A stretch of DNA of 64,000 nt from Candidatus Pacearchaeota archaeon (GTDB lineage: Archaea > Nanobdellota > Nanobdellia > Pacearchaeales > GW2011-AR1), in NCBI GenBank assembly GCA_018304045.1, contig JAGVWZ010000016.1, positions 18,063 to 82,062 on the forward strand. The letters run 5' to 3'. This document shows positions 12,705 through 47,231 of the stretch, one piece after another. The position numbers were made by a program, and so were the translations under genes. The notes below the pieces were generated by a model, which ran no database searches, had not been told where the DNA came from, and was given only the letters and a program-made list of their open reading frames with translations. The stretch's first letter is position 1; every line of letters starts with the position of its first letter.

Positions 12705-12714
12705 CGCCCGCGCC
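12705..12714. repeat. att-like copy of the tRNA-Asp 3' end (cgcccgcgcc), distal boundary of cassette array
   Basis: 10-bp all-GC match to the tRNA-Asp acceptor or T-stem 3' strand in ~30% GC DNA; one of four copies spaced 0.1-1.2 kb apart. Confidence 0.6.
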
Positions 12715-12745
12715 AAACTCTCGATAAAAGTGTCTCAGTTGAGCC

Positions 12746-13792
12746 TCACAAGAATATATTCCAGTAACTTTCAATCATCTCACTAGCAATAAACTGTACT
12801 AATTCAAAATAATCTTCAATTTTTACCTTAAACAAATCAGAATTATCAGCTTTTCTCATAGCTTTAAGATATTTTTCACGATTTTTATTTCTAATGACTA
12901 TTGGCGGATAATTATTTTTAATTAAAATATAATTTAGTAACATTCTTCCAGTTCTTCCATTTCCATCCATAAACGGATGGATTTTTTCAAACTTATGCTG
13001 AAAAATAATAGCTAAAACTAATGGATGAAGCTTTTCCTTATTTTCTTTATCTGAAGATTGCTTTGCAATCGAAGATTTGAGAACTCGGTTCTCATTATAC
13101 CATTTTAATAATAAATCCATATCTGTTTTTACATAAGGGGCAGGTGTTGATTTAAAATTAGCTTTTATAACCCTAACATCTTGAGTTCTATAGCCTATTC
13201 TTTTATCAATATTATCTAAAAGATTTTTGTGAATATTTATTATAAAATCATGAGTAATTTCTTCTTTACTTTCAATTACTTCAGAAAATACTTTTTCTGT
13301 ATTCTGCAAATCATAAATTTCTCTAAGTGTTCTGTTTTTAGGTGTTTTTCCATCTTCCAATAGTTTTTTTGCTTCTGCAAGTTTTATTGTATTTCCTTCA
13401 ATTGAAGTAGTATTATAAGCAAATTCTATTAGAAAATTCTTTAGAATTTCCCTGCGAGTCAAAGAATCATGTTTTTGAAATTCTCTTAAATAATGAAGTT
13501 TGCAAGCCTCAACTTCACTAAGTTTTTCTCCTAAAAATAAATCTTGTTTTAATTTTAACTTTTTGACTTCATCAACAAGCCTATTTGATTCTAGAAAATT
13601 ATGAATAGTCTTATATGCCTTTCTTATTTCATTTTTATATTTTGGAAGGTTTTCAAGTGATTTTTTTACATCTTCAGTATTACTTCCAAGATATGCTAAA
13701 TCTTTAGTAACAAGCTTATCTTCTTTTTTTTCAGATGCCCTTAAGTAATAATATTCTTTCTTTCCAATAGTTTTCTTATAGATATATGCCAT
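12746..13792 (-). CDS. Fic/DOC family protein (cassette gene)
   Basis: Fic motif HPFMDGNGRTGR. Confidence 0.85.
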   Translation of the reverse strand: MAYIYKKTIGKKEYYYLRASEKKEDKLVTKDLAYLGSNTEDVKKSLENLPKYKNEIRKAYKTIHNFLESNRLVDEVKKLKLKQDLFLGEKLSEVEACKLHYLREFQKHDSLTRREILKNFLIEFAYNTTSIEGNTIKLAEAKKLLEDGKTPKNRTLREIYDLQNTEKVFSEVIESKEEITHDFIINIHKNLLDNIDKRIGYRTQDVRVIKANFKSTPAPYVKTDMDLLLKWYNENRVLKSSIAKQSSDKENKEKLHPLVLAIIFQHKFEKIHPFMDGNGRTGRMLLNYILIKNNYPPIVIRNKNREKYLKAMRKADNSDLFKVKIEDYFELVQFIASEMIESYWNIFL

Positions 13793-13861
13793 AGGAAATC
13801 TAAGAAAGCCTAGTTTATAAATCTTACCCTTTATTTATAAAATTATATTATAAAGGGTAAA

Positions 13862-13871
13862 CGCCCGCGCC
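13862..13871. repeat. att-like copy of the tRNA-Asp 3' end (cgcccgcgcc)
   Basis: Same core as 12705, 15795 and the tRNA itself; followed by the conserved cassette-end motif caaaaggacttttagtaaat. Confidence 0.6.
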
Positions 13872-13960
13872 GAACAAAAGGACTTTTAGTAAATATTAAT
13901 AAAATTGGAAAGAACTTTTGTGAATAGAACTCTGGATAAAAGTGTCTCAGTTAGAAGAAA

Positions 13961-14209
13961 TTATTGTTCTTTTTTATGATATAAATTTAATATGATTACT
14001 CTTTCCTCATGTTTTATATAGCAATAAGAAAGTCTAAATGGAGATACATATAATTCTCTTGTTCCTCTTCGGTCATACATCATAGGTTTTCCAATTTCAG
14101 GATTATTTTTTATTTTTTCAATTTGTTTGATTACTCTTTCCTTTAAATTATTATCCTTAATTTTTGAAAATGTTTCTCTAAATTTATCATCAAAATTAAC
14201 TCTTGTCAT
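13961..14209 (-). CDS. RelE/ParE-family type II toxin (cassette gene)
   Basis: 82 aa; close paralog of 39767..40015 (shared KIKDNNLKERV...NPEIGKPM...GTRELYVSPFRLSY); RelE-like size and basic character. Confidence 0.6.
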   Translation of the reverse strand: MTRVNFDDKFRETFSKIKDNNLKERVIKQIEKIKNNPEIGKPMMYDRRGTRELYVSPFRLSYCYIKHEERVIILNLYHKKEQ

Positions 14210-14250
14210 TTTAACCTCTTTTTTATTATAATCTGAGAAATAGAATTAAA

Positions 14251-14520
14251 TCACCATTTCTTCATTTCTTCTATAAAATTGTCAAATCCCATTTCTTTAA
14301 ATTCCCCTCTTTCATACCTTTTATATGCCTCTTCAGTTCTTCTTGCAAATTCTAAATCTTCCTCAAGAGTTTTACTAAATTCATCAGCTTTTTTTAATAT
14401 TATCTGACTATCATTTTTAATTATAACAAGTTTATCTCCTTCTTTCAAATCTCCTCTCATCTCTAAAGGTATAACTATTTGTCCTTTAGAGCTTATTCTT
14501 GTTATTGATATATTTTCCAT
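14251..14520 (-). CDS. AbrB/MazE/SpoVT-type antitoxin
   Basis: Swapped-hairpin motif ISSKGQIVIPLEMR; immediately upstream of the toxin on the same strand; C-terminus similar to 39579..39773. Confidence 0.6.
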   Translation of the reverse strand: MENISITRISSKGQIVIPLEMRGDLKEGDKLVIIKNDSQIILKKADEFSKTLEEDLEFARRTEEAYKRYERGEFKEMGFDNFIEEMKKW

Positions 14521-14654
14521 GTTAAATTTTTAAATTTAATCAGACAGAAAATTCTTAATTTTCTGTATATGTAAGATTAGTCTTACTAGTATATAAATAT
14601 TTCTATGAACAAATCTTACTCTCTACAAATGATATTTGTATTGTAAGGGGTAAC

Positions 14655-14664
14655 CGCCCATGCC
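14655..14664. repeat. degenerate att-like copy (cgcccatgcc) of the tRNA-Asp 3' end
   Basis: gggtaaCCGCCCATGCCAga versus gggtaaACGCCCGCGCCGaa at 13856; it separates the toxin-antitoxin cassette from the Fic-2 cassette. Confidence 0.45.
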
Positions 14665-14812
14665 AGACACCCATCATCTGGGTATATCTTAGTGTTTTTA
14701 TAAGAATTACTTAATCTATTGAATTTATAAGAGCTGTCGAGATAAAATATATCTATTTGACTTACCCCTACATAATAGGAAGATTTAAATATGTGTAGGG
14801 GTATAAATAATT

Positions 14813-15763
14813 ATGGTAAGTGTTAAATATAAAACTATTAATGGAAAGAAATATCTTTATGCAGAACATTCTTTTAGATTGCCTAATGGCAAAATCAAAA
14901 AAATATCTAAATTAATACAAAACAAAGAAGAAGAAAAGAATAGGGGGATAAAAGATTATTTCTTAAAAAAACAAATGGAATCTTATCAGGATTATGCATT
15001 AGAAACCTATAAACCAGATAGTATACTTAATGAAGAACAGATAAAAAAATTAGAACAGATAAAAGTAGAATATAAAGAAATAATGAAATCTTTTACTAAA
15101 AATCAAATAAAAGACATTTTAGACAGATTTACTGTTAATTTTACTTATGAATCTAATGCTATTGAAGGCAATTCTTTAACTCTAAAGGATGTAACTCTTA
15201 TACTTGGGGAAAATGTTGTTCCAAAAAACAAGGATTTAAGAGAAGTTTATGAAACAAGAAATACAAGAGAAGCCCATGAATTATTATTCAAAAATAAAGT
15301 AAAAATAAATATCAAAGATATAATTAATATTCACTCTATTCTTGTAAAGGATACAGGTGTTCAATTAGGATTTAAGAAACTTCCAAATTATCTTTTAATG
15401 AGGGATTTAAAAACAACTCCTCCTGAAAAAGTTGAAGAAGAAATGAACAAACTAATCCTTTGGTATAAAGCGAGTAAAAATAAAATTCATCCATTAAGAC
15501 TCGTGAGCGAATTTCATGCAAGATTTGAAAGTATCCATCCATTTGATGATGGAAATGGAAGAACTGGAAGAATTTTGTTAAATGCTATACTTTTTGAACA
15601 TAATTATCCTCCTTTAATTATAAGAAAAACAGCAAGAATTGCATATTTTTCTTCATTAGAAGCTTTTGATAAAGGATATAAAAATAAACTAGAAAGATTT
15701 TTGCTCGATAAGATAAAAGATACCTTTGAAAAATTTTTTAAGATTTATGTTAAATATCTTTAA
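14813..15763 (+). CDS. Fic/DOC family protein (cassette gene)
   Basis: Fic motif HPFDDGNGRTGR. Confidence 0.85.
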   Translation: MVSVKYKTINGKKYLYAEHSFRLPNGKIKKISKLIQNKEEEKNRGIKDYFLKKQMESYQDYALETYKPDSILNEEQIKKLEQIKVEYKEIMKSFTKNQIKDILDRFTVNFTYESNAIEGNSLTLKDVTLILGENVVPKNKDLREVYETRNTREAHELLFKNKVKINIKDIINIHSILVKDTGVQLGFKKLPNYLLMRDLKTTPPEKVEEEMNKLILWYKASKNKIHPLRLVSEFHARFESIHPFDDGNGRTGRILLNAILFEHNYPPLIIRKTARIAYFSSLEAFDKGYKNKLERFLLDKIKDTFEKFFKIYVKYL

Positions 15764-15794
15764 ATATAAGGACCAGAATAGGATATAACAAATC

Positions 15795-15804
15795 CGCCCG
15801 CGCC
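15795..15804. repeat. att-like copy of the tRNA-Asp 3' end (cgcccgcgcc)
   Basis: Exact 10-bp copy 108 bp from the tRNA 3' end. Confidence 0.6.
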
Positions 15805-15911
15805 TGTTTAAATTCCCATTTCTTTATTATTAATCTTACCAAAATGATAATTTAAAACTCAAACATCGGGTTCCCCGAGTTCATAGTCTCGGTTAAAATT
15901 ATAAGAGAAAG

Positions 15912-15983
15912 CGCCCGCGCCGAGACTCGAACTCGGGTTGCATCCGTGACAGGGATGAGTGCTAACCACTACACTACGCGGGC
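15912..15983 (-). tRNA. tRNA-Asp (anticodon GTC)
   Basis: Manual fold: acceptor GCCCGCG/CGCGGGC; anticodon stem CATCC/GGATG with loop CTGTCAC; T-arm CCGAG-TTCGAGT-CTCGG; discriminator G; no encoded CCA. Confidence 0.8.
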
Positions 15984-21075: not shown

Positions 21076-21090
21076 TCCCAGGGAGAGAGC
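21076..21090. repeat. att-like copy of the tRNA-Tyr 3' end (tcccagggagagagc)
   Basis: Matches tRNA-Tyr 3' terminal sequence tccccagggagagag (22260..22274); distal boundary of the array. Confidence 0.55.
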
Positions 21091-21172
21091 GATATTACTC
21101 CCTACTTTTCAGAATTAGATATATAGGCACTGTATTAATAAAATTTATAAGTATTTTAATTCTTAATAATCT

Positions 21173-21487
21173 ATGTATAGAGTTTTTCGTTCTGGAAAAT
21201 ATGAAAAGAGGCTAAATAAATTAGATAAATCCGAATCAGATAGAGTTGTTGATTTTGAACAATCCTTAAAAATTGAGCCTTATAATGGAAAACCTTTAGG
21301 ATATGAATTTTTTAGGGAGAAAAAATTCAATGGAAATAGAATTATATTCTTAATTTATGAACAACATAAATGTGTTTTCCTTGTAGTTATAACTAATAAG
21401 AAAATACAACAACAAGAAATTAATCTGATAAAAGCAAATCTTGATGTTTACAAAGAGGAAATAGAAAAAAGAATAAAAGAACTTTAA
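21173..21487 (+). CDS. RelE/ParE-superfamily toxin-like protein (cassette gene)
   Basis: 104 aa; GKPLGYEFFREKKFNGNRIIFLIYEQHKCVFLVVI resembles the RelE/StbE core. Confidence 0.45.
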   Translation: MYRVFRSGKYEKRLNKLDKSESDRVVDFEQSLKIEPYNGKPLGYEFFREKKFNGNRIIFLIYEQHKCVFLVVITNKKIQQQEINLIKANLDVYKEEIEKRIKEL

Positions 21488-21702
21488 ATTTCTTTTATAT
21501 TTCCCTGAATTATATCTTTTATACCTTCCGCTATCTCTTTAATAAGTTCTCCATCTACTTCTTTACATTTTATTAATTCTTCATATTCTTCTCTTGAAAT
21601 AGTTATTGTCTCTTCCATGATAATTTTAGTATTTTTAGGTTTAAATAATTGTTGGTTATAGCTAAATAATATCCCCTGGGAGAGAGCAAAACAAAAGTTC
21701 AT
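21484..21702 (-). CDS. small hypothetical protein (probable start at MEETITISREEYEEL, ~44 aa)
   Basis: Convergent with and 4 bp overlapping the toxin-like gene; helical acidic peptide. Confidence 0.25.
   Translation of the reverse strand: MNFCFALSQGILFSYNQQLFKPKNTKIIMEETITISREEYEELIKCKEVDGELIKEIAEGIKDIIQGNIKEI
21672..21687. repeat. att-like copy of the tRNA-Tyr 3' end (tcccctgggagagagc)
   Basis: Second copy separating two cassettes. Confidence 0.55.
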
Positions 21703-21713
21703 TCCCTCTGATT

Positions 21714-22196
21714 TTAATCGGATTTATAAAAATCATAAACCTGTTCATCAGCCCATACTCTTTCAGAGTCAGGAACTTCTGTATCCACAGCCCATTTTCT
21801 TTTGTTTTTGGGTGTTGCATTAAGAACATTATTCATAAATTCTAATTTTCTTTCTTTAACTGTTTTTTTATCAGTATCTTCTAATCTCCATCCATTTAAT
21901 ACAAATTCTACAAACCTCATGTGGTCTGGATGTCTCATATAGGCTAACATTTCATCTTCTGAGTCAAATGTGATGTTCATTCCAACATCAAATCTATATA
22001 CTTGAACTGCCCTTCCAGAATCATATCTTGGAGCAACTAAAAAATCTCTAACTCCAGGTATTTGAGCTAGATATCTATTTGCATTATCAATAATTTGCTG
22101 TACAGCTTGAGGATTATTAGGATTAGTTTGATATAAGACTATGTGGCTAAATCCATTACCTAATATTTTTTCTAAATCTACATTCTCAGTTACCAT
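21714..22196 (-). CDS. hypothetical protein, possible Dabb/stress-responsive alpha-beta barrel domain (cassette gene)
   Basis: N-terminal FSHIVLYQT...resembles Dabb starts; otherwise unassigned. Confidence 0.3.
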   Translation of the reverse strand: MVTENVDLEKILGNGFSHIVLYQTNPNNPQAVQQIIDNANRYLAQIPGVRDFLVAPRYDSGRAVQVYRFDVGMNITFDSEDEMLAYMRHPDHMRFVEFVLNGWRLEDTDKKTVKERKLEFMNNVLNATPKNKRKWAVDTEVPDSERVWADEQVYDFYKSD

Positions 22197-22259
22197 AAAT
22201 TTATCAGAATTCTCTAATTTAAAAATCTTTCCATTTTGTAATAACTATATAGTAACAAA

Positions 22260-22331
22260 AATATAAACATCCCCAGGGAGAGAGTCGAACTCCCGTCATC
22301 CGGTCTACAGCCGAAGGTAATAACCGTTATA
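22260..22331 (-). tRNA. tRNA-Tyr (anticodon GTA), archaeal-type C1:G72
   Basis: Manual fold: acceptor CCCCAGG/CCTGGGG; anticodon stem TTCGG/CCGGA with loop CTGTAGA; T-arm GGGAG-TTCGACT-CTCTC; discriminator A. Confidence 0.7.
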
Positions 22332-22476
22332 CGACCTGGGGATCTGATTTTGCCATATATTCCTCCATTCCTCTGAAATCAGGTCCACAGGGAATTGGGA
22401 TAAACATACTAAAAAGTTACTATATTTAAAGATTTGTTTTGAATAAGTTTAAATAATATATATTTTACTGCAGTTT

Positions 22477-34086: not shown

Positions 34087-34213
34087 AAATCACCTTTAAA
34101 TAGTATTTCATAATGAGAATTAGACTATTTAATTTTAATTATTATATGAGCTGTCAAATTAACGTCAGGTGATTTAAAGCAAAGTTTTTAAATTAGTCAA
34201 AGTTAGATTTAAA

Positions 34214-34687
34214 ATGCTAAAAAAAGGTTTAGGGCTTATAGGTCTTGTAGTTACAATTTTAATATTCTTTAGTGGAGGATTGTTTAGTTTTTACTTTTTT
34301 GATATTAAGACAAGTATTCCATTACTTAATGCACTTATTATAACAATAAAACCGTTTATACTCCCAATTGCTATTTTTTGTGTTATACCTTTAATTGTGT
34401 TTATAATCTGCGTATTGAGAGCAAAACCCAATACTAATATAGATGAGATATTCTTTTGGAAAATATTGAATTTAATTACTCATCTTATATTATTAATTTT
34501 AATATTATTTATTATTGGTTGGTTTTGGGCATTGATGATGATAGGATTAATGATAATTTCAAATAATATTAATATTTCATTAATAATCCCCTGCATCATA
34601 GTAATTGTTTCTATATTTGTAATAGATGCATTAGTACAAAAACATTTTAAGATTAGATATTATAATATACTTCATTGGCTTAAATAG
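34214..34687 (+). CDS. integral membrane protein
   Basis: Four to five TM helices. Confidence 0.35.
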   Translation: MLKKGLGLIGLVVTILIFFSGGLFSFYFFDIKTSIPLLNALIITIKPFILPIAIFCVIPLIVFIICVLRAKPNTNIDEIFFWKILNLITHLILLILILFIIGWFWALMMIGLMIISNNINISLIIPCIIVIVSIFVIDALVQKHFKIRYYNILHWLK

Positions 34688-35549
34688 AAGCCATTTTAAT
34701 TAATCCCAACCATCTATTTTCTCCTAAATCTAAATCTTGACCTGCAAGAGAACAAGGAACTTGTTTAGTTGTGGTATGTTCTTCTATAAAATTATGTTGT
34801 ATGGTTAGACCTGCCATGATTATTGGAGCAGACCAAAGGGCTTTCAATCCTCTAAAATCATCAACTCTATCTTTAATCTTCATAAAAACAGTTTCTATTT
34901 TATAATTATGAATATGAGTTTTATGATAATTTTGTATTTTATGCTCTACTTCATAACCACCACCAAAACCTAATTTATTATTGTAAAACATTTTTTTAAA
35001 TGCCTTAGGATAGAAAACTCCTGCATCTGTTTGAATAAACTTGGGTTTTCCTTTGCTTATTGCTTTCTCTAAGAATATTTTTGCTTGATTAGGATTTGTA
35101 GCTGTGCTATAATGTATTCCAGTAATCATTCTAGTATTCCAGTCAACACAACACCAATATTTATCTAAATGCCCACTTCTATTGATTACTGTTTCATCAG
35201 CATAAAATGAATTACCTAGATTATAACCTAATTTTTCAACAAAGTTATAAACCTTTAGAGCATACTTGTAAACCCAGTTTAAAATAGTTTGATGGCTTAC
35301 TTTAAAATTGAAATGTCTTTTTAATTGGTTTCTCATTTTTCTGCTTGAAAGGTTTGATAAGTACATATCAATGGACATAGCAATAGTTCTATTATCAGTT
35401 CTCATCCTATAAAAGCCATTGTCAGCAGTAAAGTATTTCTTACAATCAGAACAATAGTATTTCTGAATCTTACCTCTATTTTCAGTTTTTCTGTATCCTT
35501 GCTTTGAAAAGTTGATACTTCCACAATGCTTACATTTTATTTCTTGTTT
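34680..35549 (-). CDS. IS6-like DDE transposase with N-terminal zinc finger
   Basis: N-terminal CKHCGS...CSDCKKYF zinc finger; DDE candidates ADETVIN / IQTDAGVFYPKAFK / NFIEEHTTTK resemble the IS6/IS26 DETY...TDKAPAY...IEQ spacing; probable start at MKQEIKCKHCG. Confidence 0.5.
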   Translation of the reverse strand, partial: KQEIKCKHCGSINFSKQGYRKTENRGKIQKYYCSDCKKYFTADNGFYRMRTDNRTIAMSIDMYLSNLSSRKMRNQLKRHFNFKVSHQTILNWVYKYALKVYNFVEKLGYNLGNSFYADETVINRSGHLDKYWCCVDWNTRMITGIHYSTATNPNQAKIFLEKAISKGKPKFIQTDAGVFYPKAFKKMFYNNKLGFGGGYEVEHKIQNYHKTHIHNYKIETVFMKIKDRVDDFRGLKALWSAPIIMAGLTIQHNFIEEHTTTKQVPCSLAGQDLDLGENRWLGLIKMASI

Positions 35550-35680
35550 CATAATATATTCATGTACCTGAACTATATAAATGTTTCGGTACATGAAAAA
35601 GATATTTAAATACAAAAAAGCTTATAAACTGATAAAAAGAAGAGAAGAAAAGGTAATTGTGATATAACCAAGATTTAAAA

Positions 35681-35944
35681 ATGACTTTTAATAATAACAC
35701 TATGGATGAAAATTTATCTCATGATTTAGAAAGATTTCAAGAAGATATTTTATATTTTGAAAATAAAAAAGAGGAATTAAGAGCAGAATTCTTAAATAAA
35801 TTTGTTGCAATAAAAAATAAGAGGATTATAGATTCTGGTAACTCCATAGAAGAGCTAAGGAACCGATTAGAAAACAATAATCAAGACCCTGCAAGAATAA
35901 TAATAGAATTTGTACCAGAAGAAGAAACTATAATGATTTTATAA
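35681..35944 (+). CDS. hypothetical coiled-coil protein
   Basis: ORF only; adjacent to the aspartic protease gene with a 1-bp gap. Confidence 0.3.
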   Translation: MTFNNNTMDENLSHDLERFQEDILYFENKKEELRAEFLNKFVAIKNKRIIDSGNSIEELRNRLENNNQDPARIIIEFVPEEETIMIL

Positions 35945-36382
35945 ATGACAAAAATTCCTTTGTTTATGGGTAAGAGTCTTGGTTTTGATAGATATATGGT
36001 TTCAATGTCTGTTAAATATTGTAATTTACCCTGTTTTTTTACTAAAGCTATTGTGGATACTGGATGCCCTTATACAATTATAAGCGAGAGTACATTAAAA
36101 AAGACAAGGATACCTTATAATGATAAACCATTTAAATGCCAAGTTCAATTAGGAAATATTCCTTTAGAATTAAAAGAACTAGGTATTTGTGAACTTCAAT
36201 TTAGAGATGAAAATGGGAATATTATAAAATTTAAACAAGAAATTTATGTTGGAATTCCTATAATGAAGGGGTATCTCGCCCAAGAACTTCCAAGTTTTAT
36301 CGGGAAAGATTTAATGGATACAAATTTTATATCGGTAATAAATAAAAAAGATGGTTCTAGTCATTTATATTTAGATGATTAA
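35945..36382 (+). CDS. retropepsin-like (clan AA) aspartic peptidase
   Basis: Active-site motif AIVDTGCPYTIIS (D-T-G) in a ~145-aa protein, as in archaeal AF_0612-type aspartic proteases. Confidence 0.5.
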   Translation: MTKIPLFMGKSLGFDRYMVSMSVKYCNLPCFFTKAIVDTGCPYTIISESTLKKTRIPYNDKPFKCQVQLGNIPLELKELGICELQFRDENGNIIKFKQEIYVGIPIMKGYLAQELPSFIGKDLMDTNFISVINKKDGSSHLYLDD

Positions 36383-36599
36383 ATTAATAATTTATTCTTT
36401 TTCAATTAAAATTTTTCCATCATTCAATGATGCTTTAAGTTCTTTTCCTAATAACTTAGATTCTTTTACGACATCCTTAGGTAAAATTAAAATATATCTA
36501 TTATAAGTAACATCACCTATTTTCTTGTCTAATACTTCACGAATTTTCATAGAATAAACAGGTACATGAAGTATTTAAAACTTTAGGTACATGAAAGAA

Positions 36600-37394
36600 T
36601 TATTTTAATATCTCTTTTAAATCAAGATTAATAGATTCAAAATATTTAACTGGGCTATTTTTTTTCAAATTCTTTGTTGTTTTACCTTCTTTAAATAAAT
36701 CAATAAAATTTGATAAACCTTTTTTATATTTTTCTTTTATTTTAGGAAGAAGTTTTTCCTTAGCCTGATTTAAACAATTCTTGCTACAAAAATTTCTAGT
36801 TATTTTATTCTCTTTAAAATTAATGAATCTATTGTTATGTTCTTTTCCACAAACAATACAAATATCTTTCTCATCAGTTATTCTTTGTCTAAAAGAATAA
36901 CCATATTTATTAATATAACAATCCGCGCATTTAGATGAACAAAAGTCAGCCATATTACTAAACCCTGCATTTGAATGAATTATAAAGCCATCATGTCCTT
37001 TTCCGCACACTATACATTTATACCTAAACTTCATCCCAAATAATCTTTTAAAAAAAAGTTTTGGTTTATGAAACCAAATCCTACCTTGTATAATTTCTCC
37101 TTTTTCAGTATTAGGTTTATTCGGTTTAGAAATAAGTTTTTCTTCTTTAGGTTTAACAACAAAACATTTAATTTTTTGTTTTTCCATTTGCGGCTTAATT
37201 TCTGAAAGATATTCTTGTAATCCTTTAATTTTACTATAATCCGTTTCATCAGTCTTCATTCTTAAAAATAAAGTTCTTTCTATTTTATTATTAATCGTCT
37301 GATTTCCAAATCCTTCTATTTCAAAATAAGCATTTGGAGAGGGTTCGGTAATATTTATTACTTTGTCATGAGTCTTTCTATTTTCCTTTTTCAT
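36600..37394 (-). CDS. protein with two TRASH/zinc-ribbon-like metal-binding modules
   Basis: CIVCGKGHDGFIIH...FCSSKCADCY and CIVCGKEHNNRF...FCSKNC (Cx2C-x19-22-Cx3C TRASH spacing). Confidence 0.45.
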   Translation of the reverse strand: MKKENRKTHDKVINITEPSPNAYFEIEGFGNQTINNKIERTLFLRMKTDETDYSKIKGLQEYLSEIKPQMEKQKIKCFVVKPKEEKLISKPNKPNTEKGEIIQGRIWFHKPKLFFKRLFGMKFRYKCIVCGKGHDGFIIHSNAGFSNMADFCSSKCADCYINKYGYSFRQRITDEKDICIVCGKEHNNRFINFKENKITRNFCSKNCLNQAKEKLLPKIKEKYKKGLSNFIDLFKEGKTTKNLKKNSPVKYFESINLDLKEILK

Positions 37395-37499
37395 TTAATT
37401 ATAACGATTTTACAACTTATAAATATTGCTTTCTTAGAAATGGGAAATTAATAACTGACGTTTACTTTACAACTCATTATTATAGCAAATAACAAAAAT

Positions 37500-38444: not shown

Positions 38445-38603
38445 TTAATCTTCGTCACAATCTTCAAATTTTACAGAATGAAGATTTTCGTATTCTTCTT
38501 TTCTTTTTTTACTGCATTTATCACAATATTTTCTTGTGTATCTTCCAGAAACTTTAGCTAAAAAATCCTTTCCGCAATCCTTACATTTTATTTGTTTTTC
38601 CAT
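38445..38603 (-). CDS. 52-aa zinc-ribbon mini-protein (MEKQIKCKDCGKDF...YCDKCSKKRKEE...)
   Basis: CxxC...CxxC; paralog of 20908..21018; directly upstream of tRNA-Gly. Confidence 0.35.
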   Translation of the reverse strand: MEKQIKCKDCGKDFLAKVSGRYTRKYCDKCSKKRKEEYENLHSVKFEDCDED

Positions 38604-38756
38604 GACTAAATCAGGATTTTTAAGAATTTAAACTTTGCTGCCCAGTTTTAATATGGATTAATAAATCTTGCCATACTACTCTATGGTTAAAATGACCTAA
38701 CCTAAACATAAAATCTTTTAAACCCCTTTTTATTGTTATGTTATATTCAAAATATT

Positions 38757-38882
38757 GCGCCGCTAGTTTAGTGGTAGAACATATCGTTGCCAATAAAGAA
38801 ATTAGATTAATTTCTAATTTTTCCTTTCATAAGGAAAGAAAGCAAAAACGATAGGATCCGAGTCCGATTCTCGGGTGGCGCA
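38757..38882 (+). tRNA. tRNA-Gly (anticodon GCC) with ~55-nt intron after position 37
   Basis: Exon 1 GCGCCGC-TA-GTTT-AGTGGTA-GAAC-A-TATCG-TTGCCA; intron aataaagaaatt...gcaaaaa (approximately 38793..38847); exon 2 (A)CGATA-GGAT-CCGAG-TCCGATT-CTCGG-GTGGCGC-A; acceptor 7 bp with one G:U. Confidence 0.7.
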
Positions 38883-39007
38883 TTCATATTTGCAAGGCAA
38901 ATATGTCATCCGGGATGTCGTAAAGAATTCAAACAGTGATAAGGTCTGATTCCGAGCAAAAGGACTTTTAGTAAATTTGATAGAATAAGAAAGCACTTTT
39001 GCGAGTA

Positions 39008-39018
39008 GGGTGGCACAT
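39008..39018. repeat. att-like copy of the tRNA-Gly 3' end (gggtggcacat)
   Basis: tRNA ends cgggtggcgca; the copy is preceded by the conserved cassette-end motif. Confidence 0.55.
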
Positions 39019-39081
39019 TTTATTATTTTCTAGTAGTAACAAAATAGGAAGATTTAAAAATGTTAAAGAATAGTTAATTTT

Positions 39082-39537
39082 ATGGGATATGATTATAAAA
39101 GTTTAGAAGATTTTAAAATGGGTTTTCCATTTCTTCGTAGCTGTAGCAAACTTGGAGATTTTAAACTTTTTATTATAGGTGAAGAAAAAAGTGAAAGATT
39201 AAGGGCTTGTGAATTTACCCAAGGAGTTCTTGAGAGAATGTTGGATGAAGCTAAAAGCTCTGGAGATATTAGAGACTATGAAGTAAAAATCATTGATCTT
39301 GCAACTTCTACTAAAGCTACTCGAATTGATCCATTATATCCAGAAGAATGGGGAAGAATAGGAAATAAAGATGGTTTAGTTTTTCTTCCAATATTTCATA
39401 ATACAGATGGTGAACCATGCTTACCTCAAGTTGCATTTGATGAGCATTTACCGGCGATTTTTTCAGTTTCACAAAAAGGATATAATGCAGTAGTAAATCG
39501 TTCTAAAAGAGATTGTTATGATACTGTAAGAGTTTAG
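39082..39537 (+). CDS. hypothetical protein (cassette gene)
   Basis: ORF only. Confidence 0.3.
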   Translation: MGYDYKSLEDFKMGFPFLRSCSKLGDFKLFIIGEEKSERLRACEFTQGVLERMLDEAKSSGDIRDYEVKIIDLATSTKATRIDPLYPEEWGRIGNKDGLVFLPIFHNTDGEPCLPQVAFDEHLPAIFSVSQKGYNAVVNRSKRDCYDTVRV

Positions 39538-39578
39538 TAAACCAAAAATTTTATAAATAATCATTTACTATAAACTAC

Positions 39579-39773
39579 ATGGAAACACAAACAATAGACA
39601 ATTTGTCAAAAGAAGTAATGCTGTTAAAAAAAGAATTTGCTAAAATGAAAGAATTCATGGAAGAAGATCTTGAATTTGCAAAAAGAACAGAAGAAGCATG
39701 GCAGGAAATTGATGAAGGAAAATGCACTTGTATAAATTCTGAAGACTTTTTAAAAGAAATTAAAAAATGGTAG
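39579..39773 (+). CDS. antitoxin (C-terminally similar to 14251..14520)
   Basis: EEDLEFAKRTEEAWQE...FLKEIKKW versus EEDLEFARRTEEAYKR...FIEEMKKW; immediately precedes and overlaps the toxin gene. Confidence 0.5.
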   Translation: METQTIDNLSKEVMLLKKEFAKMKEFMEEDLEFAKRTEEAWQEIDEGKCTCINSEDFLKEIKKW

Positions 39774-40015
39774 AAATAATCTATGCAGATAGATTCAAAA
39801 GAACATTATCAAAAATTAAGGATAATAATCTTAAAGAGAGGGTAGCAAAACAAATTGCAAAGATTATTGAAAATCCTGAAATAGGCAAACCAATGAGTTA
39901 TAATAGAAAAGGGACAAGAGAACTTTATGTTTCACCATTTAGGCTATCTTATGCTTTTATCTCACATCAAAATACAATTTATTTTTTAGATTTGTATCAT
40001 AAGGATGAACAATAA
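39767..40015 (+). CDS. RelE/ParE-family toxin, paralog of 13961..14209
   Basis: ~70% identical to the tRNA-Asp-array toxin. Confidence 0.6.
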   Translation: MVEIIYADRFKRTLSKIKDNNLKERVAKQIAKIIENPEIGKPMSYNRKGTRELYVSPFRLSYAFISHQNTIYFLDLYHKDEQ

Positions 40016-40060
40016 AAGTTCAATTTCCCATATTGAAAATCGCATTTTGGGTGGGTACCC

Positions 40061-40072
40061 GGGTGGCGCATG
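40061..40072. repeat. att-like copy of the tRNA-Gly 3' end (gggtggcgcatg)
   Basis: Preceded by cccgggtgg as in the tRNA. Confidence 0.55.
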
Positions 40073-40109
40073 CTTTTTTTTATAGAAGAGAAATTAGGGA
40101 ATCGAACTT

Positions 40110-40820
40110 TTAACTTATTTCTATCCTTCTACAGGCTAAACATAAAACATCTTTATAAGCATCTTCTCCTACCAAAACTGCTGTAAAATCATATTCTGCT
40201 ATTTGATTACCAGAAATATTATTTGCAATAACCTGTCCTTTGGCAATATTATCAAAATTATTTATCAAGACATTCTCTTTAGATTTTTTTATTATATTAA
40301 AGACCTCAAATATCTCCATATCCTCATTAATCTTATTTTCAATGATATTTTTTATTAACAAGCTTGCTTCTTCTACATTTTCTTTCCTATTATGTGGACC
40401 TACTTCGATGCTTATGCCACAATCAACAAAATCTATTAATGCTTTTCCACTTGCAAAAAATTCAGGCATTATAACTAATTTTTTTAAACCCAATAGTTTT
40501 GCAAATTCTATTTTTTCATTATTTGGTTTTGTTATTATCCCAAACATAGGGCAGTTATTAGATGAAGAATGAATATCTATTATATAATAAAAATCTTTTA
40601 GTCTTTTAATCAGATTATAGGCCAGTTTTTCCTCATGATTCCCATCTATCTTTCCTGGAAAACATCGGTTTAAATCAGTATCTATAAATCTTTTATTCTC
40701 AATAAATGCTTTTTTATTTGAAAGAAAAAAAGGGAAGAAAGACTGGTTTTTACTAACTTCAAAGCCATATCTTTCATTCCCATGTAAACAACAAACAATT
40801 GCTAAATTTTTCATAGTCAC
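40110..40820 (-). CDS. succinylglutamate desuccinylase/aspartoacylase (AstE/AspA) family zinc hydrolase-like protein
   Basis: Conserved CCLHGNERYG (HGNE) motif and IIDIHSS block. Confidence 0.5.
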   Translation of the reverse strand: MTMKNLAIVCCLHGNERYGFEVSKNQSFFPFFLSNKKAFIENKRFIDTDLNRCFPGKIDGNHEEKLAYNLIKRLKDFYYIIDIHSSSNNCPMFGIITKPNNEKIEFAKLLGLKKLVIMPEFFASGKALIDFVDCGISIEVGPHNRKENVEEASLLIKNIIENKINEDMEIFEVFNIIKKSKENVLINNFDNIAKGQVIANNISGNQIAEYDFTAVLVGEDAYKDVLCLACRRIEIS

Positions 40821-40821
40821 G

Positions 40822-41289
40822 TTATAAGATACCTATTGCAAGAACCGCATCTCCCTTATCTAATGCCATTTTCAAATCTTGTTTAAAGAATCTACTTACT
40901 GAACAATGTTCTGGTTCTCTTCCATAGAAAAGTCCTCCATAATATCCTTTGACTACTCCATTAGAATCAGAATTACAATTAAGATAGACTGCAAACTCTT
41001 CTTGTAGAGTTCTAATTTGCCTAGGCATGCCACTCAATCCTGGAAATGTACTTTGGCAGTAATTCAACAATGCTTTATACATTCTTGGATTTTGAGTCCT
41101 TAAACATATTGCTCTTTCTCCATTGATTGCTTGATTTGTAATCTCTCTAAATATTCCCTTTCCTTGAATAGATGAATCTAGACAAATTCCTTCTACAATT
41201 AGAGAAGGAAATCCTGCAAAAGATCTTCTATTATAACTTGCCATTGCTTTGATTTCTCCATTTCTAAGAAGAAATACTCTTTCTGGCAA
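40822..41289 (-). CDS. GNAT-family N-acetyltransferase-like protein
   Basis: Motif A-like IVEGICLDSSIQGKGIF; adjacent to the AstE/AspA-like gene. Confidence 0.45.
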   Translation of the reverse strand: MPERVFLLRNGEIKAMASYNRRSFAGFPSLIVEGICLDSSIQGKGIFREITNQAINGERAICLRTQNPRMYKALLNYCQSTFPGLSGMPRQIRTLQEEFAVYLNCNSDSNGVVKGYYGGLFYGREPEHCSVSRFFKQDLKMALDKGDAVLAIGIL

Positions 41290-41764
41290 AGTTATATGAT
41301 TATAGATATCTTGAAAATCTAAATCCCTCCCAAATCCATTTCTTACAACACTTACAACTTGTTCTAAATCATCAGGATTTGAATCAAAATGCTTCTTAGG
41401 ATTTGTGATTTCTTCTATGTTGCCAAAGACAGCTAGAAGATTTAATTATTTTATTTACCATTTTACTCCTGACCTCCTTTCAGCCTTTTTCAGAAAGAAT
41501 TTCAAAATAAGAAAGATTAAATTAACAGGGCTATGCCCAGGGATATTGAATTAAAAATTTATTATATAGGGTTTTAACTAGGAAGAATATAATTTTATTG
41601 CCAGAGATAACCTCTAGATTGTATTGTCATATAAATTTGATTATTAATTGCTATTTAAATTTTCCTATTCAATTCCCTCCTTTAAAAAAGCAAAATCCCT
41701 GGCTTCTTGAGTATCTAACCTACCCAACCAAAAATTTTATATAGCTTACTTTCTAAGAATAAAT

Positions 41765-41926
41765 ATGGAAAACGAAGAATTAATTATAAGCAAATTAGAT
41801 GTATTAAAACAAGAAATTGACTTTATTAAAAAACATTTAATAGATGTAACTTTAACTCAAGATGATGTTAAATCTTTATGTGAAGCTGAAGAAGATTTAA
41901 AAAAAGGAAGAACAAAGAGGTTGTAA
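41765..41926 (+). CDS. 53-aa antitoxin-like protein upstream of RelE/ParE toxin
   Basis: MENEELIISKLDVLKQEIDFIKKHL...; stop 1 bp before the toxin start codon; below ORF-track cutoff. Confidence 0.45.
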   Translation: MENEELIISKLDVLKQEIDFIKKHLIDVTLTQDDVKSLCEAEEDLKKGRTKRL

Positions 41927-41927
41927 A

Positions 41928-42188
41928 ATGTATTTTGTAGAGCTATCAGTTAAAGCTCAAGATTTCTTAGAAAAAATTGATAAAGATACTAAAGATAGAA
42001 TAGAAAAAAGATTAAAAAATCTTGAAAGTAATCCTATTCCAAGCGATTCAAAATTTATTGGAAGAGATAATAATGAAATGGTTTTTAGATACAGGATTGG
42101 TAAATTCAGAGCTCTGTATAAAGTTAAAGAAGCTCAAAAGATAATTTTAGTCACTAAAATTGATAAAAGAGACAAAGTTTATGATTAA
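41928..42188 (+). CDS. RelE/ParE-family toxin
   Basis: 86 aa; FRYRIGKFRALYKV...IILVTKIDKRDKVY typical RelE/StbE C-terminal region. Confidence 0.6.
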   Translation: MYFVELSVKAQDFLEKIDKDTKDRIEKRLKNLESNPIPSDSKFIGRDNNEMVFRYRIGKFRALYKVKEAQKIILVTKIDKRDKVYD

Positions 42189-42304
42189 ACTAAATTCCTT
42201 ATAGTAAAACAATAAAATTTTGTGCAAACTGAACTTTTTTCTTGTTTACGAGCAAAAGGACTTTTAGCAAATTCGATGAAATAAGAAAGCACTTTTGCGA
42301 GTAG

Positions 42305-42315
42305 GGTGGCGCATG
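42305..42315. repeat. att-like copy of the tRNA-Gly 3' end (gggtggcgcat)
   Basis: Preceded by the conserved cassette-end motif (42253..42304). Confidence 0.55.
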
Positions 42316-42364
42316 TTTTACTGAACATTATATAGTCCTTAAACTAAAATGTGGTAGCCGAGAA

Positions 42365-42375
42365 GGGTAGCGCAT
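42365..42375. repeat. att-like copy of the tRNA-Gly 3' end (gggtagcgcat), last of the array
   Basis: 50 bp after the previous copy (empty cassette). Confidence 0.45.
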
Positions 42376-42430
42376 TTCTATTATAATTAAGGTTCATAAA
42401 ACATTTAAACTTAATTAAGCTCTTTTTTAC

Positions 42431-43549
42431 ATGGTTTTAAAAGAGCTGATTAAAAACCACTCTGGAAAGATACAAGCATCTCTATCAACGATTATAAAGA
42501 TAATACTTATTTTTTCTATTTTCTATGCCACATACTATCATCTTTGGCATATTTTGTTTGCCAATATTTTTTTATTGTTCTTATTATTTACACCATATTT
42601 TCTAAGAAAAAAATATGAAGTTCATATTCCAAAGGAATTCGAGTTTATTTTTCTTGCATTCATAATAATCTCGTTTTTTCTAGGTGATATAAGGGGAACA
42701 ATTATACAGATTTTTTTTGGAACTGCTATAGCTTTTATTGGATTTACAATAATGCTGATATTGTTTTCAAATAGCAAATTTAAGGCCAATTATCTATTAG
42801 TTATGCTATTTTCATTCAGTTTTTCTGTAACTTTTGGACTTATTGCAGAAATGATAAAATATTATCTAAAAACTTATTTTAATGAAGGAATAGTAAATCT
42901 TAGTGACTATACTTTTGCCATGCAAAATCTTACTTTTGTTGCCATAGGAGCTTTAACTGCATCAGTATTTGGTTTTATTTACATGAAAGGATTTAGAAAC
43001 AAGCTAATGAAAGAATGGGTTGGCAAATTTAAGAAAAGCAATCCAAATTTATTTATTCAAAGAACTGAATCACCTGAAGAAATATTAAAATTAATTAAAA
43101 AAGGTGAGAATGAAAAATTAGAATTCAAATCAACATTAAGGATGAATCTTCATACAGGAGAAAAAGATAGAAAAGTTGAAAATTCAGTTCTTAAAACAAT
43201 TGTTGCATTTTTAAATTCTGAAGGAGGTTGTTTATTAATTGGAATTTCTGATAATAGTGAAATAATTGGTATAGAAAAAGATGGATTTGTTAATAATGAT
43301 ATGTTTAATAGGCATTTTACAAATCTAATAAAAGAAAAAGTTGGAAATGAGTTTTTACCATTTATGAATTTTGAAATAGTATCATTAGATGGAAAAAATA
43401 TCCTTAAGGTAGATTTAGGAAAAAGTGATAAGCCAGTCTTTCTAAAAAATAGCAATGAGGAATTTTACATAAGAGTTGGAGCATCATCAATTCTGTTGAA
43501 TGGAAGTGAATTAATTGAGTATATCAAGAATAAATTTCATATAAGATAA
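42431..43549 (+). CDS. membrane-anchored Schlafen/AlbA_2-domain protein
   Basis: N-terminal ~200 aa with five or six TM helices; C-terminal EKLEFKSTLRMN...VLKTIVAFLNSEGGCLLIGISDNSEIIGIEKD matches the AlbA_2 (divergent AAA / Schlafen) signature. Confidence 0.6.
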   Translation: MVLKELIKNHSGKIQASLSTIIKIILIFSIFYATYYHLWHILFANIFLLFLLFTPYFLRKKYEVHIPKEFEFIFLAFIIISFFLGDIRGTIIQIFFGTAIAFIGFTIMLILFSNSKFKANYLLVMLFSFSFSVTFGLIAEMIKYYLKTYFNEGIVNLSDYTFAMQNLTFVAIGALTASVFGFIYMKGFRNKLMKEWVGKFKKSNPNLFIQRTESPEEILKLIKKGENEKLEFKSTLRMNLHTGEKDRKVENSVLKTIVAFLNSEGGCLLIGISDNSEIIGIEKDGFVNNDMFNRHFTNLIKEKVGNEFLPFMNFEIVSLDGKNILKVDLGKSDKPVFLKNSNEEFYIRVGASSILLNGSELIEYIKNKFHIR

Positions 43550-47070: not shown

Positions 47071-47231
47071 CTTTTATAAAAAGAAGTTATAAGGATTATT
47101 GTTCTAGATGAATCTCAAAAATATGGGCCCACGCGGCCCTAGAATCGCGGAGAGCTCGGTGTAAAAAATAAGAACCTTTTTGTATCCAAAAGAATAATAA
47201 TATTTATAAACTGTACAGTTTATTATATTGT

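Follow-up and report, generated by a model that had tools for sequence, protein, structure and literature searches.

A tandem array of small, integrase-less segments behind a tRNA-Gly gene of a Pacearchaeota archaeon

Introduction

Why would the last nucleotides of a tRNA gene recur, several times and in one orientation, in the DNA behind that gene? The question is raised by a tRNA-Gly gene in a 64,000-nt stretch of DNA (the window; 29% G+C) from a Candidatus Pacearchaeota archaeon (GenBank assembly GCA_018304045.1, contig JAGVWZ010000016.1, positions 18,063 to 82,062 of the forward strand). Copies of the 3' end of this gene divide the DNA that follows it into an array of segments, which an earlier, sequence-only reading of the window had interpreted as mobile cassettes. 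To our knowledge, it is largely unknown how genes are gained and lost in the DPANN archaea (named for Diapherotrites, Parvarchaeota, Aenigmarchaeota, Nanoarchaeota and Nanohaloarchaeota), whose genomes are tiny and host dependent, and their mobile elements have barely been described. Here, we compare the array with related loci and consider it somewhat probable that its segments, which lack an integrase of their own, accreted at the 3' end of tRNA-Gly by site-specific recombination.

Results

Copies of the tRNA-Gly 3' end lie downstream of the gene

The intron-containing tRNA-Gly read from the sequence alone was borne out by tRNA prediction. With introns allowed, ARAGORN placed a tRNA-Gly(GCC) at 38756-38883, its 55-nt intron being at the canonical position 37/38. 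All four arms of a cloverleaf (acceptor, D, anticodon and T) are present in the fold of the RNA (-38.7 kcal/mol, z = -4.3). The gene was missed by the default (bacterial) mode of ARAGORN and by Rfam, both of which gave only the tRNA-Asp, tRNA-Tyr and tRNA-Val genes of the window. In the minimum-energy fold, the 3' splice site of the intron lies in a 3-nt bulge beside a 3-bp helix; a strict second bulge and helix were not evident in that fold. The gene and the copies of its 3' end, referred to here as the core, are the following.

38757..38882, plus strand: tRNA-Gly(GCC), which starts the array (ARAGORN -i, cloverleaf fold); exon 1, 38757-38792; intron, 38793-38847; exon 2, 38848-38882
38873-38882, plus strand: core in tRNA-Gly itself, GGGTGGCGCA, the last 10 nt of the gene
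39008..39018, plus strand: core copy 1, GGGTGGCACAT, one mismatch
40061..40071, plus strand: core copy 2, exact
42304..42314, plus strand: core copy 3, exact
42365-42375, plus strand: core copy 4, GGGTAGCGCAT, degenerate

The core consists of the last 2 nt of the T stem, the 7-nt 3' acceptor strand and the discriminator. Searched for as GGGTGGCGCAT with at most one mismatch, it was found five times in the 64 kb, at 38873 (the tRNA itself), 39008, 40061, 42304 and 42365, where 0.05 occurrences are expected by chance and none of 100 shuffles reached five. The placement of the copies is also non-random: all five are on the plus strand, and the four extra ones all lie downstream of the tRNA. These sites had been listed before and hold, except that the copy given as 42305 begins at 42304. 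The most degenerate copy is the fourth (GGGTAGCGCA at 42365), which may have an origin other than that of the remaining copies.

No further copies of the tRNA-Gly 5' end were found in the window. A 10-nt copy of the 5' end (TGCGCTGCTA, in tRNA orientation) was observed ~56 nt upstream of the gene in two related loci, L067 (about 1218-1227) and L066 (loci from other contigs are given L numbers). In these loci, it brackets the tRNA-Gly promoter region; it is absent from the window.

Related loci differ exactly at core boundaries

The cores bound segments of 124 nt (plus repeat), 1042 nt, 2232 nt and 50 nt, and the cargo differs from one to the next, with zero, three, four and zero genes, respectively, those of the third segment being on both strands.

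38883..39007, plus strand: segment 1, with a hairpin (~38885-38905, catatttgc/gcaaatatg), a spacer, a T-loop-like stretch GGTCTGATTCC and element E
39019..40060, plus strand: segment 2, with a 151-aa open reading frame (ORF), an antitoxin-like ORF and a ParE/RelE toxin gene
40072..42303, plus strand: segment 3, a composite of an AstE module, a toxin-antitoxin pair and the second copy of element E
42315..42375, plus strand: 50-nt segment with core copy 4 (core search, alignment to relatives)

Segment 1 had been described as an empty cassette of 126 bp. That description fails, as the segment holds a conserved 57-nt hairpin element, which we called element E, and a second hairpin.

Orthologous loci were reached through homologues of the flanking protease (69-72% identity). 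In L066, a tRNA-Gly(GCC) with a 43-nt intron was found whose 3' end and next ~40 nt align to the window, with exactly 135 nt missing, namely segment 1 and one core. The two loci are alignable on both sides of segment 1. The first ~40 nt of segment 2 after the core are conserved with the L066 tRNA-Gly trailer; the genes downstream are unrelated, the next one in L066 (154 aa) having no relationship to the 151-aa gene of the window. L067 has an intronless tRNA-Gly followed by segment 1, including element E, at 84% identity to that of the window, and the same first unit is shared by L068 and L069 (L070 is cut off at the tRNA). After segment 1, L067 continues with a core, a ~700-nt cassette encoding a ribbon-helix-helix (RHH)/VapB-like antitoxin and a ParE toxin, another core and a gene for a 52-aa Zn-ribbon protein. 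The L067 toxin is only 32% identical to the second toxin of the window. The ~30 nt before the core at the end of this toxin-antitoxin cassette are conserved in the window, which adds element E (copy 2) as a 54-nt insertion exactly between cassette end and core. In these comparisons, insertions and deletions lie exactly at core boundaries, and the segments are not ancestral and invariant, the outcome that would have refuted the earlier reading: L066 and L067 differ from the window, and the block is inverted.

The inversion was apparent from the flanking genes. Relative to L067, the Zn-ribbon and AlbA_2 flanks of the window are collinear, and the block of tRNA plus array is inverted between them. 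On the 5' side of tRNA-Gly, the window has the 52-aa Zn-ribbon gene and a trypsin-like protease gene; in relatives (synteny of L066-L070), the SLFN_AlbA_2 gene is found on that side, beside the protease gene. The SLFN_AlbA_2 gene that follows the array in the window is a flanking chromosomal gene and not a cassette. Homology to the AlbA_2 promoter region of relatives begins at 42381, 6 nt past core copy 4, and the 50-nt segment may not be a cassette but the scar of an inversion. Two or more nested inversions have to be assumed between the window and L067, and no confident history can be given for the inversion or for core copy 4.

Small Zn-ribbon genes (CxxC...CxxC) were observed at 38445-38603 and 20908-21018 in the window and at 2-157 in L067, all on the minus strand. 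Such a gene lies just past the last core of the Gly array in L067 and of a tRNA-Tyr array in the window; the one at the Gly locus of the window is on the 5' side of the tRNA because the block is inverted. The two Zn-ribbon proteins of the window have weak similarity (37% over 27 aa).

The intron of tRNA-Gly(GCC) also varied, with 55 nt in the window (38793-38847), 43 nt in L066 (gene at 863-978) and none in L067 (gene at 1084-1156) to L070 or in L084 (gene at 7716-7788). Judging from these sequences, it was gained or lost among close relatives at a probable recombination hot spot.

Two further tRNA genes of the window have arrays

12705..15983, minus strand: tRNA-Asp array, with tRNA-Asp(GTC) at 15911-15983
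21076..22342, minus strand: tRNA-Tyr array, with tRNA-Tyr(GTA) at 22269-22342

The same organization had been noted at tRNA-Asp, correctly so: counting the 3' end of the tRNA itself, there are four exact copies of the Asp core GGCGCGGGCG, the others being at 15795, 13862 and 12705, and a degenerate copy was found at 14655. The Gly and Asp cores have identical boundaries within their tRNAs. Cargo of the Asp array includes two Fic genes and an AbrB-type antitoxin gene with a RelE toxin gene. Its Fic proteins (12746-13792, minus strand; 14813-15763, plus strand) match the PADLOC candidate defence families SoFic and PDC-S04, with E-values down to 1e-39.

The tRNA-Tyr array is a third one that the earlier reading did not include. 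Its core, the last 14 nt of the tRNA (CTCTCTCCCTGGGG), occurs again at 21673 and 21076 (0.00 expected), and 4 nt separate the core from GAACTTTTGT, the end sequence of its first cassette. The cargo is a Dabb-domain gene (21714-22196) and a small two-gene module (21173-21487 and a short ORF on the opposite strand). No 3'-end array was found at tRNA-Val in the window; hence, three of the four tRNA genes in the 64 kb have arrays.

The RelE-like toxin of the Gly array has 66% protein identity (54/82) to that encoded at 13961-14209 in the Asp array, and the antitoxin C-termini are 45% identical over 53 aa. The relatedness noted before (toxins at ~70%, matching antitoxin C-termini) therefore stands at these figures. 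The conclusion drawn from it, that the same mobile cassette had inserted at two tRNA genes, does not, given identities of this order and no shared flanking DNA except element E. On sequence grounds, the likeness is best described as family-level relatedness and not as a shared recent insertion.

Copies of the last 10 nt of tRNAs were sought around the 18 tRNAs present in 10 of 20 non-redundant loci (the window and DPANN loci). Downstream copies were found for 9/18 tRNAs, a fraction biased upward by the many loci fetched for containing element E (it is 5/10 among loci fetched through proteins), with upstream copies for 1/18 and inverted copies for 0/18. The duplicated stretch measures 10-11 nt at tRNA-Gly and tRNA-Asp, 14-16 nt at tRNA-Tyr, at least 14 nt at a tRNA-Ile (L043) and ~39 nt at a tRNA-Leu (L020).

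Element E is conserved at cassette ends

38953..39007, plus strand: element E copy 1, directly abutting core copy 1 (nhmmer E-value 1.6e-15)
42249..42303, plus strand: element E copy 2, directly before core copy 3
13871-13923, inverted relative to the tRNA: element E of the tRNA-Asp array, touching an Asp core

Element E is a 57-nt imperfect hairpin or palindrome of the form C-GA-GCAAAAG-GA-CTTTT, loop, RAAAG-YA-CTTTTGC-GA-G (in copy 1, the 3' arm is GAAAG-CA-CTTTTGC-GA-G). Over 14 copies the stems are invariant, with the outermost pair covarying from C-G to U-A in three of them, and the A/T-rich loop of ~22 nt varies in sequence and length. As single-stranded DNA, all copies adopt the same, weak fold (-5 to -9 kcal/mol). 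No Rfam family matched element E, nor did an Rfam e-value scan of 38600-42500 return a relevant match.

Each of the three copies in the window touches a core, and a 75-nt direct repeat (89% identical) ends in the core copies at 39008 and 42304. The insertion at copy 2 has a counterpart within the window, where the third cassette end of the Asp array has an inverted element E and the fourth has none. Element E is thus a discrete 54-55-nt indel at the junction of cassette end and core, in either orientation.

Outside the window, an exact-pattern scan of one genome per species found element E in two contigs of a Nanoarchaeota metagenome-assembled genome, or MAG (L013, L020), and in a Pacearchaeota MAG from Rifle (L029), its other matches being chance ones in bacteria. 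A gapped-pattern scan of Joint Genome Institute (JGI) metagenomes gave 17 more stretches with true copies, from ~10 distinct contigs. The contigs that bear it belong to Nanoarchaeota and Pacearchaeota from several sites, and in these many DPANN genomes the element is conserved beside copies of tRNA 3' ends. Nearly all copies elsewhere lie 2-12 nt upstream of a copy of the acceptor 3' strand of a tRNA that is encoded 110-150 nt upstream. These tRNAs include Gln(CTG), Gln(TTG), Leu(CAA) and Ile(TAT, with intron); Glu(TTC) is followed by a diverged element E, and for several more only the 3' part of the tRNA is on the contig. The 13 junctions of element E and core (the Gly and Asp arrays of the window and 10 other contigs) have 11 different core sequences. 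This agrees with the relaxed tRNA specificity previously proposed for the recombination system; the system itself is another matter, as no recombinase for the sites was found.

The units that contain element E share a plan: post-tRNA hairpin, spacer, palindromic T-loop-like stretch (…TTTGAACC…GGTCTCAAATCC…), element E, core. Units of 125-170 nt with this plan were observed behind at least eight different tRNAs in several genomes. Within one genome, only element E is conserved between units, the ~130-nt units being otherwise different (L013 versus L020; Gly versus Asp). In L044, two identical units are in tandem.

Two units in L084, a related Pacearchaeota contig, were of a different kind. There, at 2200-2479 (minus strand), tRNA-Tyr is followed by a ~145-nt unit (repeat included) that contains a hairpin, GGTTCGA and an A/T-rich stretch and ends in a copy of the 3' end of that tRNA, and at 7716-7860 (plus strand), tRNA-Gly is followed by a 55-nt unit with a partial copy, GGCGCATTTTA, at its end. 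Short duplications of the 3' end are thus not confined to units with canonical element E.

Several other identities were considered for these units. A split or permuted tRNA, or a trans-spliced 3' half, was rejected because the units lack a matching 5' acceptor strand, a D arm and an anticodon arm. Units at different tRNAs have a conserved T-loop-like part, which is therefore not a copy of the local tRNA. Element E is not a tRNA-type intron, since at the junctions inspected the 4-bp central helix of a bulge-helix-bulge could form in only some copies, and it is not a C/D-box small RNA, as it has no conserved C or D boxes (AUGAUGA is present in one copy by chance). In the limited library of literature available to us, we found no description of element E or of such arrays in DPANN archaea, which is not proof of novelty.

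Cargo of the tRNA-Gly array

39082-39537, plus strand: 151-aa ORF without assigned function (ORF list), segment 2
39579-39773, plus strand: 64-aa antitoxin-like ORF overlapping the toxin start, segment 2
39767-40015, plus strand: 82-aa ParE/RelE toxin (Pfam ParE_toxin, E-value 5e-7), segment 2
40110-40820, minus strand: AstE_AspA gene (Pfam), segment 3
40822-41289, minus strand: ORF for the 155-aa AstE partner, segment 3
41765-41926, plus strand: 53-aa antitoxin-like ORF abutting the toxin, segment 3
41928-42188, plus strand: 86-aa ParE/RelE toxin (PF05016), segment 3
42431-43549, plus strand: SLFN_AlbA_2 gene (Pfam E-value 1.3e-22), membrane-anchored, with a hydrophobic N-terminal half

Nine ORFs were scanned between 39082 and 43549. 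Pfam assigned ParE toxin, AstE_AspA and AlbA_2 to four of them, in support of the RelE toxin, AstE/AspA-like and Schlafen/AlbA_2 genes proposed from sequence, and gave no match for five; no recombinase was found by Pfam among the ORFs of the array. Both toxins match PF05016 past the curated cut-off (E-values 5e-7 and 6e-9). Each of these ParE/RelE-family toxins is preceded by a small overlapping or abutting ORF, which is the layout of type II toxin-antitoxin systems, and from family and gene order the two pairs are predicted to be toxin-antitoxin modules.

Segment 3 had been considered a single 2.2-kb cassette. The core-bounded spacing holds and the unit is composite. Its AstE module (40126-41668: the gene, its partner and ~380 nt of upstream non-coding DNA) has 80-89% DNA identity to L059, L061 and L064, where it has three different sets of neighbours, with no tRNA beside it and no element E in any of them. 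The closest protein relatives of AstE are 89-93% identical, versus 72% for the neighbouring protease. This gap hints at lateral movement of the module and is no proof of it. The partner had been called a GNAT acetyltransferase, which we could not confirm: Pfam gave no match for the protein of 40822-41289 or for two longer orthologues, and a four-sequence profile against PDB reached the acetyltransferase YncA only below threshold (E-value 0.28) and only in the motif-A region.

Some smaller features of segment 3 were also noted. The partner is 171-189 aa long in relatives, compared to the 155-aa ORF of the window. The ~380-nt non-coding stretch upstream of it (41290-41668, minus strand; ~80% identical in L059, L061 and L064) contains a strong AGGAGG as well as a short upstream ORF (ATGGTAAATAAA...). 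The stretch gave no Rfam match and may be a leader or a regulatory RNA. At the start of the segment, 26 nt from core copy 2, an inverted T-loop-like fragment (40097-40108, minus strand; AGTTCGATTCCC) resembles the T arm of the L067-type tRNA-Gly.

An integrase element at tRNA-Val

47125-61240: integrase element of 14 kb including tRNA-Val halves, delimited by 12-nt inverted repeats and flanking fragments
47125-47166, minus strand: degenerate tRNA-Val 3' half, flanking the element
47232-48497: divergent 421-aa tyrosine recombinase with a sub-threshold Phage_integrase match
49522-52761: Prim-Pol/MCM protein, in the element together with two phosphoenolpyruvate (PEP)-utilising-type enzymes
57549-57621: intact tRNA-Val(TAC), carried within the element
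61158-61240, minus strand: orphan tRNA-Val 5' half (GGGCGATTAGGCTAGTGGCAAACCACCTCGTTTACAC) and promoter, the promoter region being like that of the intact tRNA-Val

The only tyrosine recombinase in the window is encoded 4.9 kb past the Gly array, inside another element. It belongs to a large integrase family of Pacearchaeota and Nanoarchaeota, many members of which carry PF00589. A perfect 12-nt terminal inverted repeat, GAACCTTTTTGT, is present at 47172-47183 (plus strand) and 61140-61151 (minus strand), each copy being separated by 6 nt from TTTACAC, the anticodon-loop sequence of a tRNA-Val fragment. It appears that the 14-kb element splits a host tRNA-Val gene at the anticodon loop and itself carries an intact copy. 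Its history must be more complex than this because the two flanking halves do not match each other: no 3' half matching the orphan 5' half was found in the window, and the acceptor strand of the orphan 5' half matches instead the 3' half beside the L084 integrase.

In L084, a 90%-identical integrase is encoded beside a canonical tRNA-Val 3' half at another chromosomal position, and two more distant homologues were found directly after tRNA-Val 5' halves ending at TTTACAC. Based on these four elements, the family is specific for the tRNA-Val anticodon loop and therefore not the obvious enzyme of the 3'-end arrays. As a candidate for that role the integrase of the window was rejected, since all four members examined are at that loop and their arms differ.

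The repeat GAACCTTTTTGT does resemble the arms of element E and the terminus of the first cassette behind tRNA-Tyr. Six matches to the motif G[AC]AC(C)TTTT(T)G[TC] are present in the window, compared to ~1.1 expected: in three arms of element E, at the tRNA-Tyr cassette end and at both ends of the integrase element. Five of the six sites are 4-7 nt from a tRNA-derived junction; the sixth, at 13912 in the inverted element E, is ~40 nt from the Asp core. We keep this resemblance as a lead only, because the arms of homologous elements differ.

Other repeats in the window

An IS6-family (DDE_Tnp_IS240) transposase gene is located at 34680-35615 (minus strand), and beside it a 66-nt direct repeat (77% identical) is found at 35547-35612 and 36545-36610, ~1 kb apart. 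About 3.4 kb (34087-37499) separate the protease gene from a SNF2 helicase gene, which are adjacent in L066. Elsewhere, a 35-nt repeat (CATCCTAAAAACAAGTGCCTGTC.CAAACCACACA) occurs at 2966-3000 and 18818-18852 (97% identical, 15.8 kb apart), and a 49-nt pair at 16804-16852 and 25095-25143 (86% identical) contains a G+C-rich palindrome.

Discussion

Proposed accretion at the tRNA-Gly 3' end

The locus appears to be a variable cassette array at a tRNA gene, formed by a process that seems indifferent to the identity of the tRNA. We hypothesize that the 3' end of tRNA-Gly is a recombination hot spot at which integrase-less segments have accreted in tandem. Entry would occur by conservative site-specific recombination, as opposed to transposition or homologous exchange, between a chromosomal core and the same core on incoming, presumably circular, DNA. 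Every insertion would regenerate the tRNA and leave a core copy at the far end of the insert, and as any core copy could be used again, segments would pile up, be lost or be exchanged, and the whole block could invert. The enzyme would have to act in trans, because no segment encodes a recombinase, as it does for cis-mobilizable elements and for the cargo-only elements of tycheposon islands. Element E, beside the core, would most likely be the site by which the machinery recognizes a cassette end, either as a palindrome that binds a dimer or as a folded strand like attC, and this would explain why the same element is found beside different tRNA cores. Toxin-antitoxin cargo would stabilize the array.

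There are precedents for much of this. Short attachment (att) sites of 8-26 bp and arrays are on record for integrated elements of archaea (PMC6563490), accretion of integrase-less elements is documented in bacteria (PMC5704250; 10.1101/2020.12.28.424599), and cargo such as ParE/RelE toxin-antitoxin pairs and Fic/SoFic-like proteins is typical of mobile cassettes (PMC9668308). Our confidence in accretion by site-specific recombination is nonetheless only a little better than even, because the enzyme, circular intermediates and present-day mobility are all unobserved.

A number of our observations weigh against this interpretation. No recombinase specific for the array sites was identified, no integrase was found beside E-bearing tRNAs in the larger loci examined, and the one integrase family at hand is at the tRNA-Val anticodon loop in all four elements. 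Proteins of the window have identical matches on groundwater metagenome contigs of up to 93 kb, and no difference in the array was seen among ~20 contigs that represent the source population in several samples and years; these were retrieved by exact protein matches of AlbA_2 and both toxins, which returned only the same arrangement. Neither circular forms nor empty sites were seen in these contigs, and because of the invariance the current mobility of the array is unproven. A scan of IMG/VR for extrachromosomal copies found no element E in viral or plasmid-like contigs, and one copy (L038/L055) has no tRNA within 13.8 kb upstream. The length of the core varies from 10 to at least 16 nt. Covariation in element E is limited to one pair, so that what we draw as a hairpin could equally be a double-stranded palindrome or a terminator. 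Finally, the AstE module is found without cores in three relatives, and part of the cargo may have come by other routes.

Other explanations for the array

Could the segments be the remains of larger elements and never have been mobile small units? In that case, whole integrase-bearing plasmids or viruses would have integrated repeatedly and decayed to attR scars and to cargo that is addictive or selected. The missing integrase, the degenerate core copies 1 and 4, the uniformity of the population and the abundance of integrase-bearing elements in these genomes are all as such decay would leave them, and for cis-mobilizable elements (PMC5704250) and the island remnants of Prochlorococcus (10.1101/2020.12.28.424599) an origin by decay and subsequent accretion is documented. 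Three observations make us think it unlikely. The stems of element E are invariant across genomes while its loop drifts, which indicates selection on the element itself and not decay; it occurs alone as a clean indel at junctions; and independent deletions would not converge on units of 125-170 nt and the same plan behind at least eight different tRNAs. A miniature inverted-repeat transposable element (MITE) would account for the inverted termini of element E (GCAAAAG...CTTTTGC), its two orientations, the clean presence or absence of the 135-nt unit and of the element alone, and the identical tandem units of L044. The ~130-nt unit, or element E alone, would then target the junction at the tRNA acceptor 3' strand and duplicate it, and the gene segments would be unrelated insertions or captures in between. 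The window does encode an IS6-family transposase, though nothing ties it to element E, and we know of no transposase associated with the element. A duplication ranging from 10 to at least 16 nt, and ~39 nt in L020, is unlike a fixed target-site duplication, no target sequence is shared outside the tRNA-derived core, and many near-identical full-length copies were not found, only element E being conserved between the units of one genome. We therefore consider a MITE to be quite improbable. A target duplication of the casposon or transposon type was rejected as well, given the variable duplication length and the absence of Cas1 and transposase genes from the arrays.

That the cores and element E are a functional signal of no mobility (terminators, insulators or decoys in tRNA processing), with gene content differing through ordinary rearrangement, seems to us very unlikely. 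Such a role would fit the T-runs and hairpins in element E and behind the tRNAs, the oligo-T tracts at cassette ends that are expected of archaeal terminators, the constraint on element E and the stability of the array in its population. Orthologous tRNA-Gly genes manage without it, however, as L066 has no unit and L084 only the 55-nt partial duplication. Moreover, core copies have gathered mismatches that would break acceptor pairing, they mark the exact boundaries of gene-content differences, and no Rfam family matches.

Significance of the arrays

If the arrays are active sites of capture, accessory genes would enter the genomes of this lineage mainly at tRNA genes, here at three of the four in 64 kb and at half of those in the related loci that were examined. 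Element E would provide a sequence handle with which cassettes could be found in metagenomes, recombinases nominated by co-occurrence and in vitro tests designed. The locus also bears on the old idea that links tRNA introns and split tRNAs to the integration of mobile elements, through a tRNA-Gly intron of 55 nt, 43 nt or none and a 14-kb element between tRNA-Val halves.

Comparison with known systems

One close resemblance is to the bacterial cis-mobilizable elements (CIMEs) of the ICESt1 type, which have no integration genes, keep attL and attR, and follow a tRNA gene in tandem. A copy of the 3' end of the gene delimits each of them, and new elements enter at an att copy (PMC5704250). Co-oriented downstream repeats of the 3' end, presence or absence of segments at the repeats and the lack of an integrase of their own were all found here. 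In contrast to CIMEs, the units are far smaller (0.05-2.2 kb versus several kb), the cores measure 10-16 nt, the host is a DPANN archaeon, and three of four tRNA genes in 64 kb have arrays. A conserved 57-nt hairpin abuts the core, and no helper element or integrase was identified.

In Dehalococcoides, genomic islands at the ssrA gene are reportedly in tandem and delimited by direct repeats of the 3' end of that gene. Integration of islands at ssrA, the gene for transfer-messenger RNA (tmRNA), is described in PMC3146451. The system differs from the present one in being bacterial, with large islands that are tied to their own integrases and one locus per genome.

Tycheposon islands of Prochlorococcus are likewise hypervariable and tRNA-anchored, with successive integrations that push older elements outward, scattered partial tRNAs, degenerated remnants and small streamlined host genomes (10.1101/2020.12.28.424599). 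Tycheposons carry their own tyrosine recombinase and a replication module, and their excision was shown experimentally, whereas the segments described here have neither and are known from sequence alone. The partial tRNAs are much shorter here, and an element like E has not been described for tycheposons.

Integrons, including those of archaea (PMC9668308), share with these arrays the small cassettes and a cargo rich in toxin-antitoxin and acetyltransferase-type genes. The attC site and element E are both imperfect palindromes of ~57 nt or more, with stems that are conserved around a variable centre, beside a short crossover sequence. However, no intI was found beside the head of the Gly array, where a Zn-ribbon gene and a protease gene are located, and a simple motif scan (not the IntegronFinder covariance model) found no pairs of attC R'' (RYYYAAC) and R' (GTTRRRY) boxes within 160 nt of 10 junctions or in the whole window. 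The boundary is tRNA-specific and not GTTRRRY, and element E is present at only some junctions, in either orientation. Integron cassettes are mostly single promoterless ORFs in one orientation, whereas the segments here are multigene, have genes in both orientations and have their own upstream regions. The arrays were thus rejected as integrons proper, on the missing intI and R''/R' boxes and the multigene bidirectional segments. A looser kinship, with an integron-like capture platform of Pacearchaeota and Nanoarchaeota in which the acceptor strand serves as attI and element E as an attC-like site, strikes us as doubtful. A tRNA-indifferent recombinase would then shuffle small cassettes (toxin-antitoxin, Fic and metabolic genes) among many tRNA loci and between genomes.

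Among archaea, accretion at tRNA 3' ends has a parallel in the integrated elements of Thaumarchaeota, which enter the 3'-distal part of tRNA genes, intron-containing ones included, at att sites down to 8 bp (median 17), and whose tyrosine-recombinase elements form arrays (PMC6563490). Those elements are multigene and range from several kb to tens of kb, most with an integrase, and no arrays are described there in which integrase-less units of sub-kb to 2-kb size share a hairpin (PMC6563490). The Pacearchaeota arrays are set apart from these systems by their small units, by their frequency (three of four tRNA genes), by having no integrase in or beside them, and by element E.

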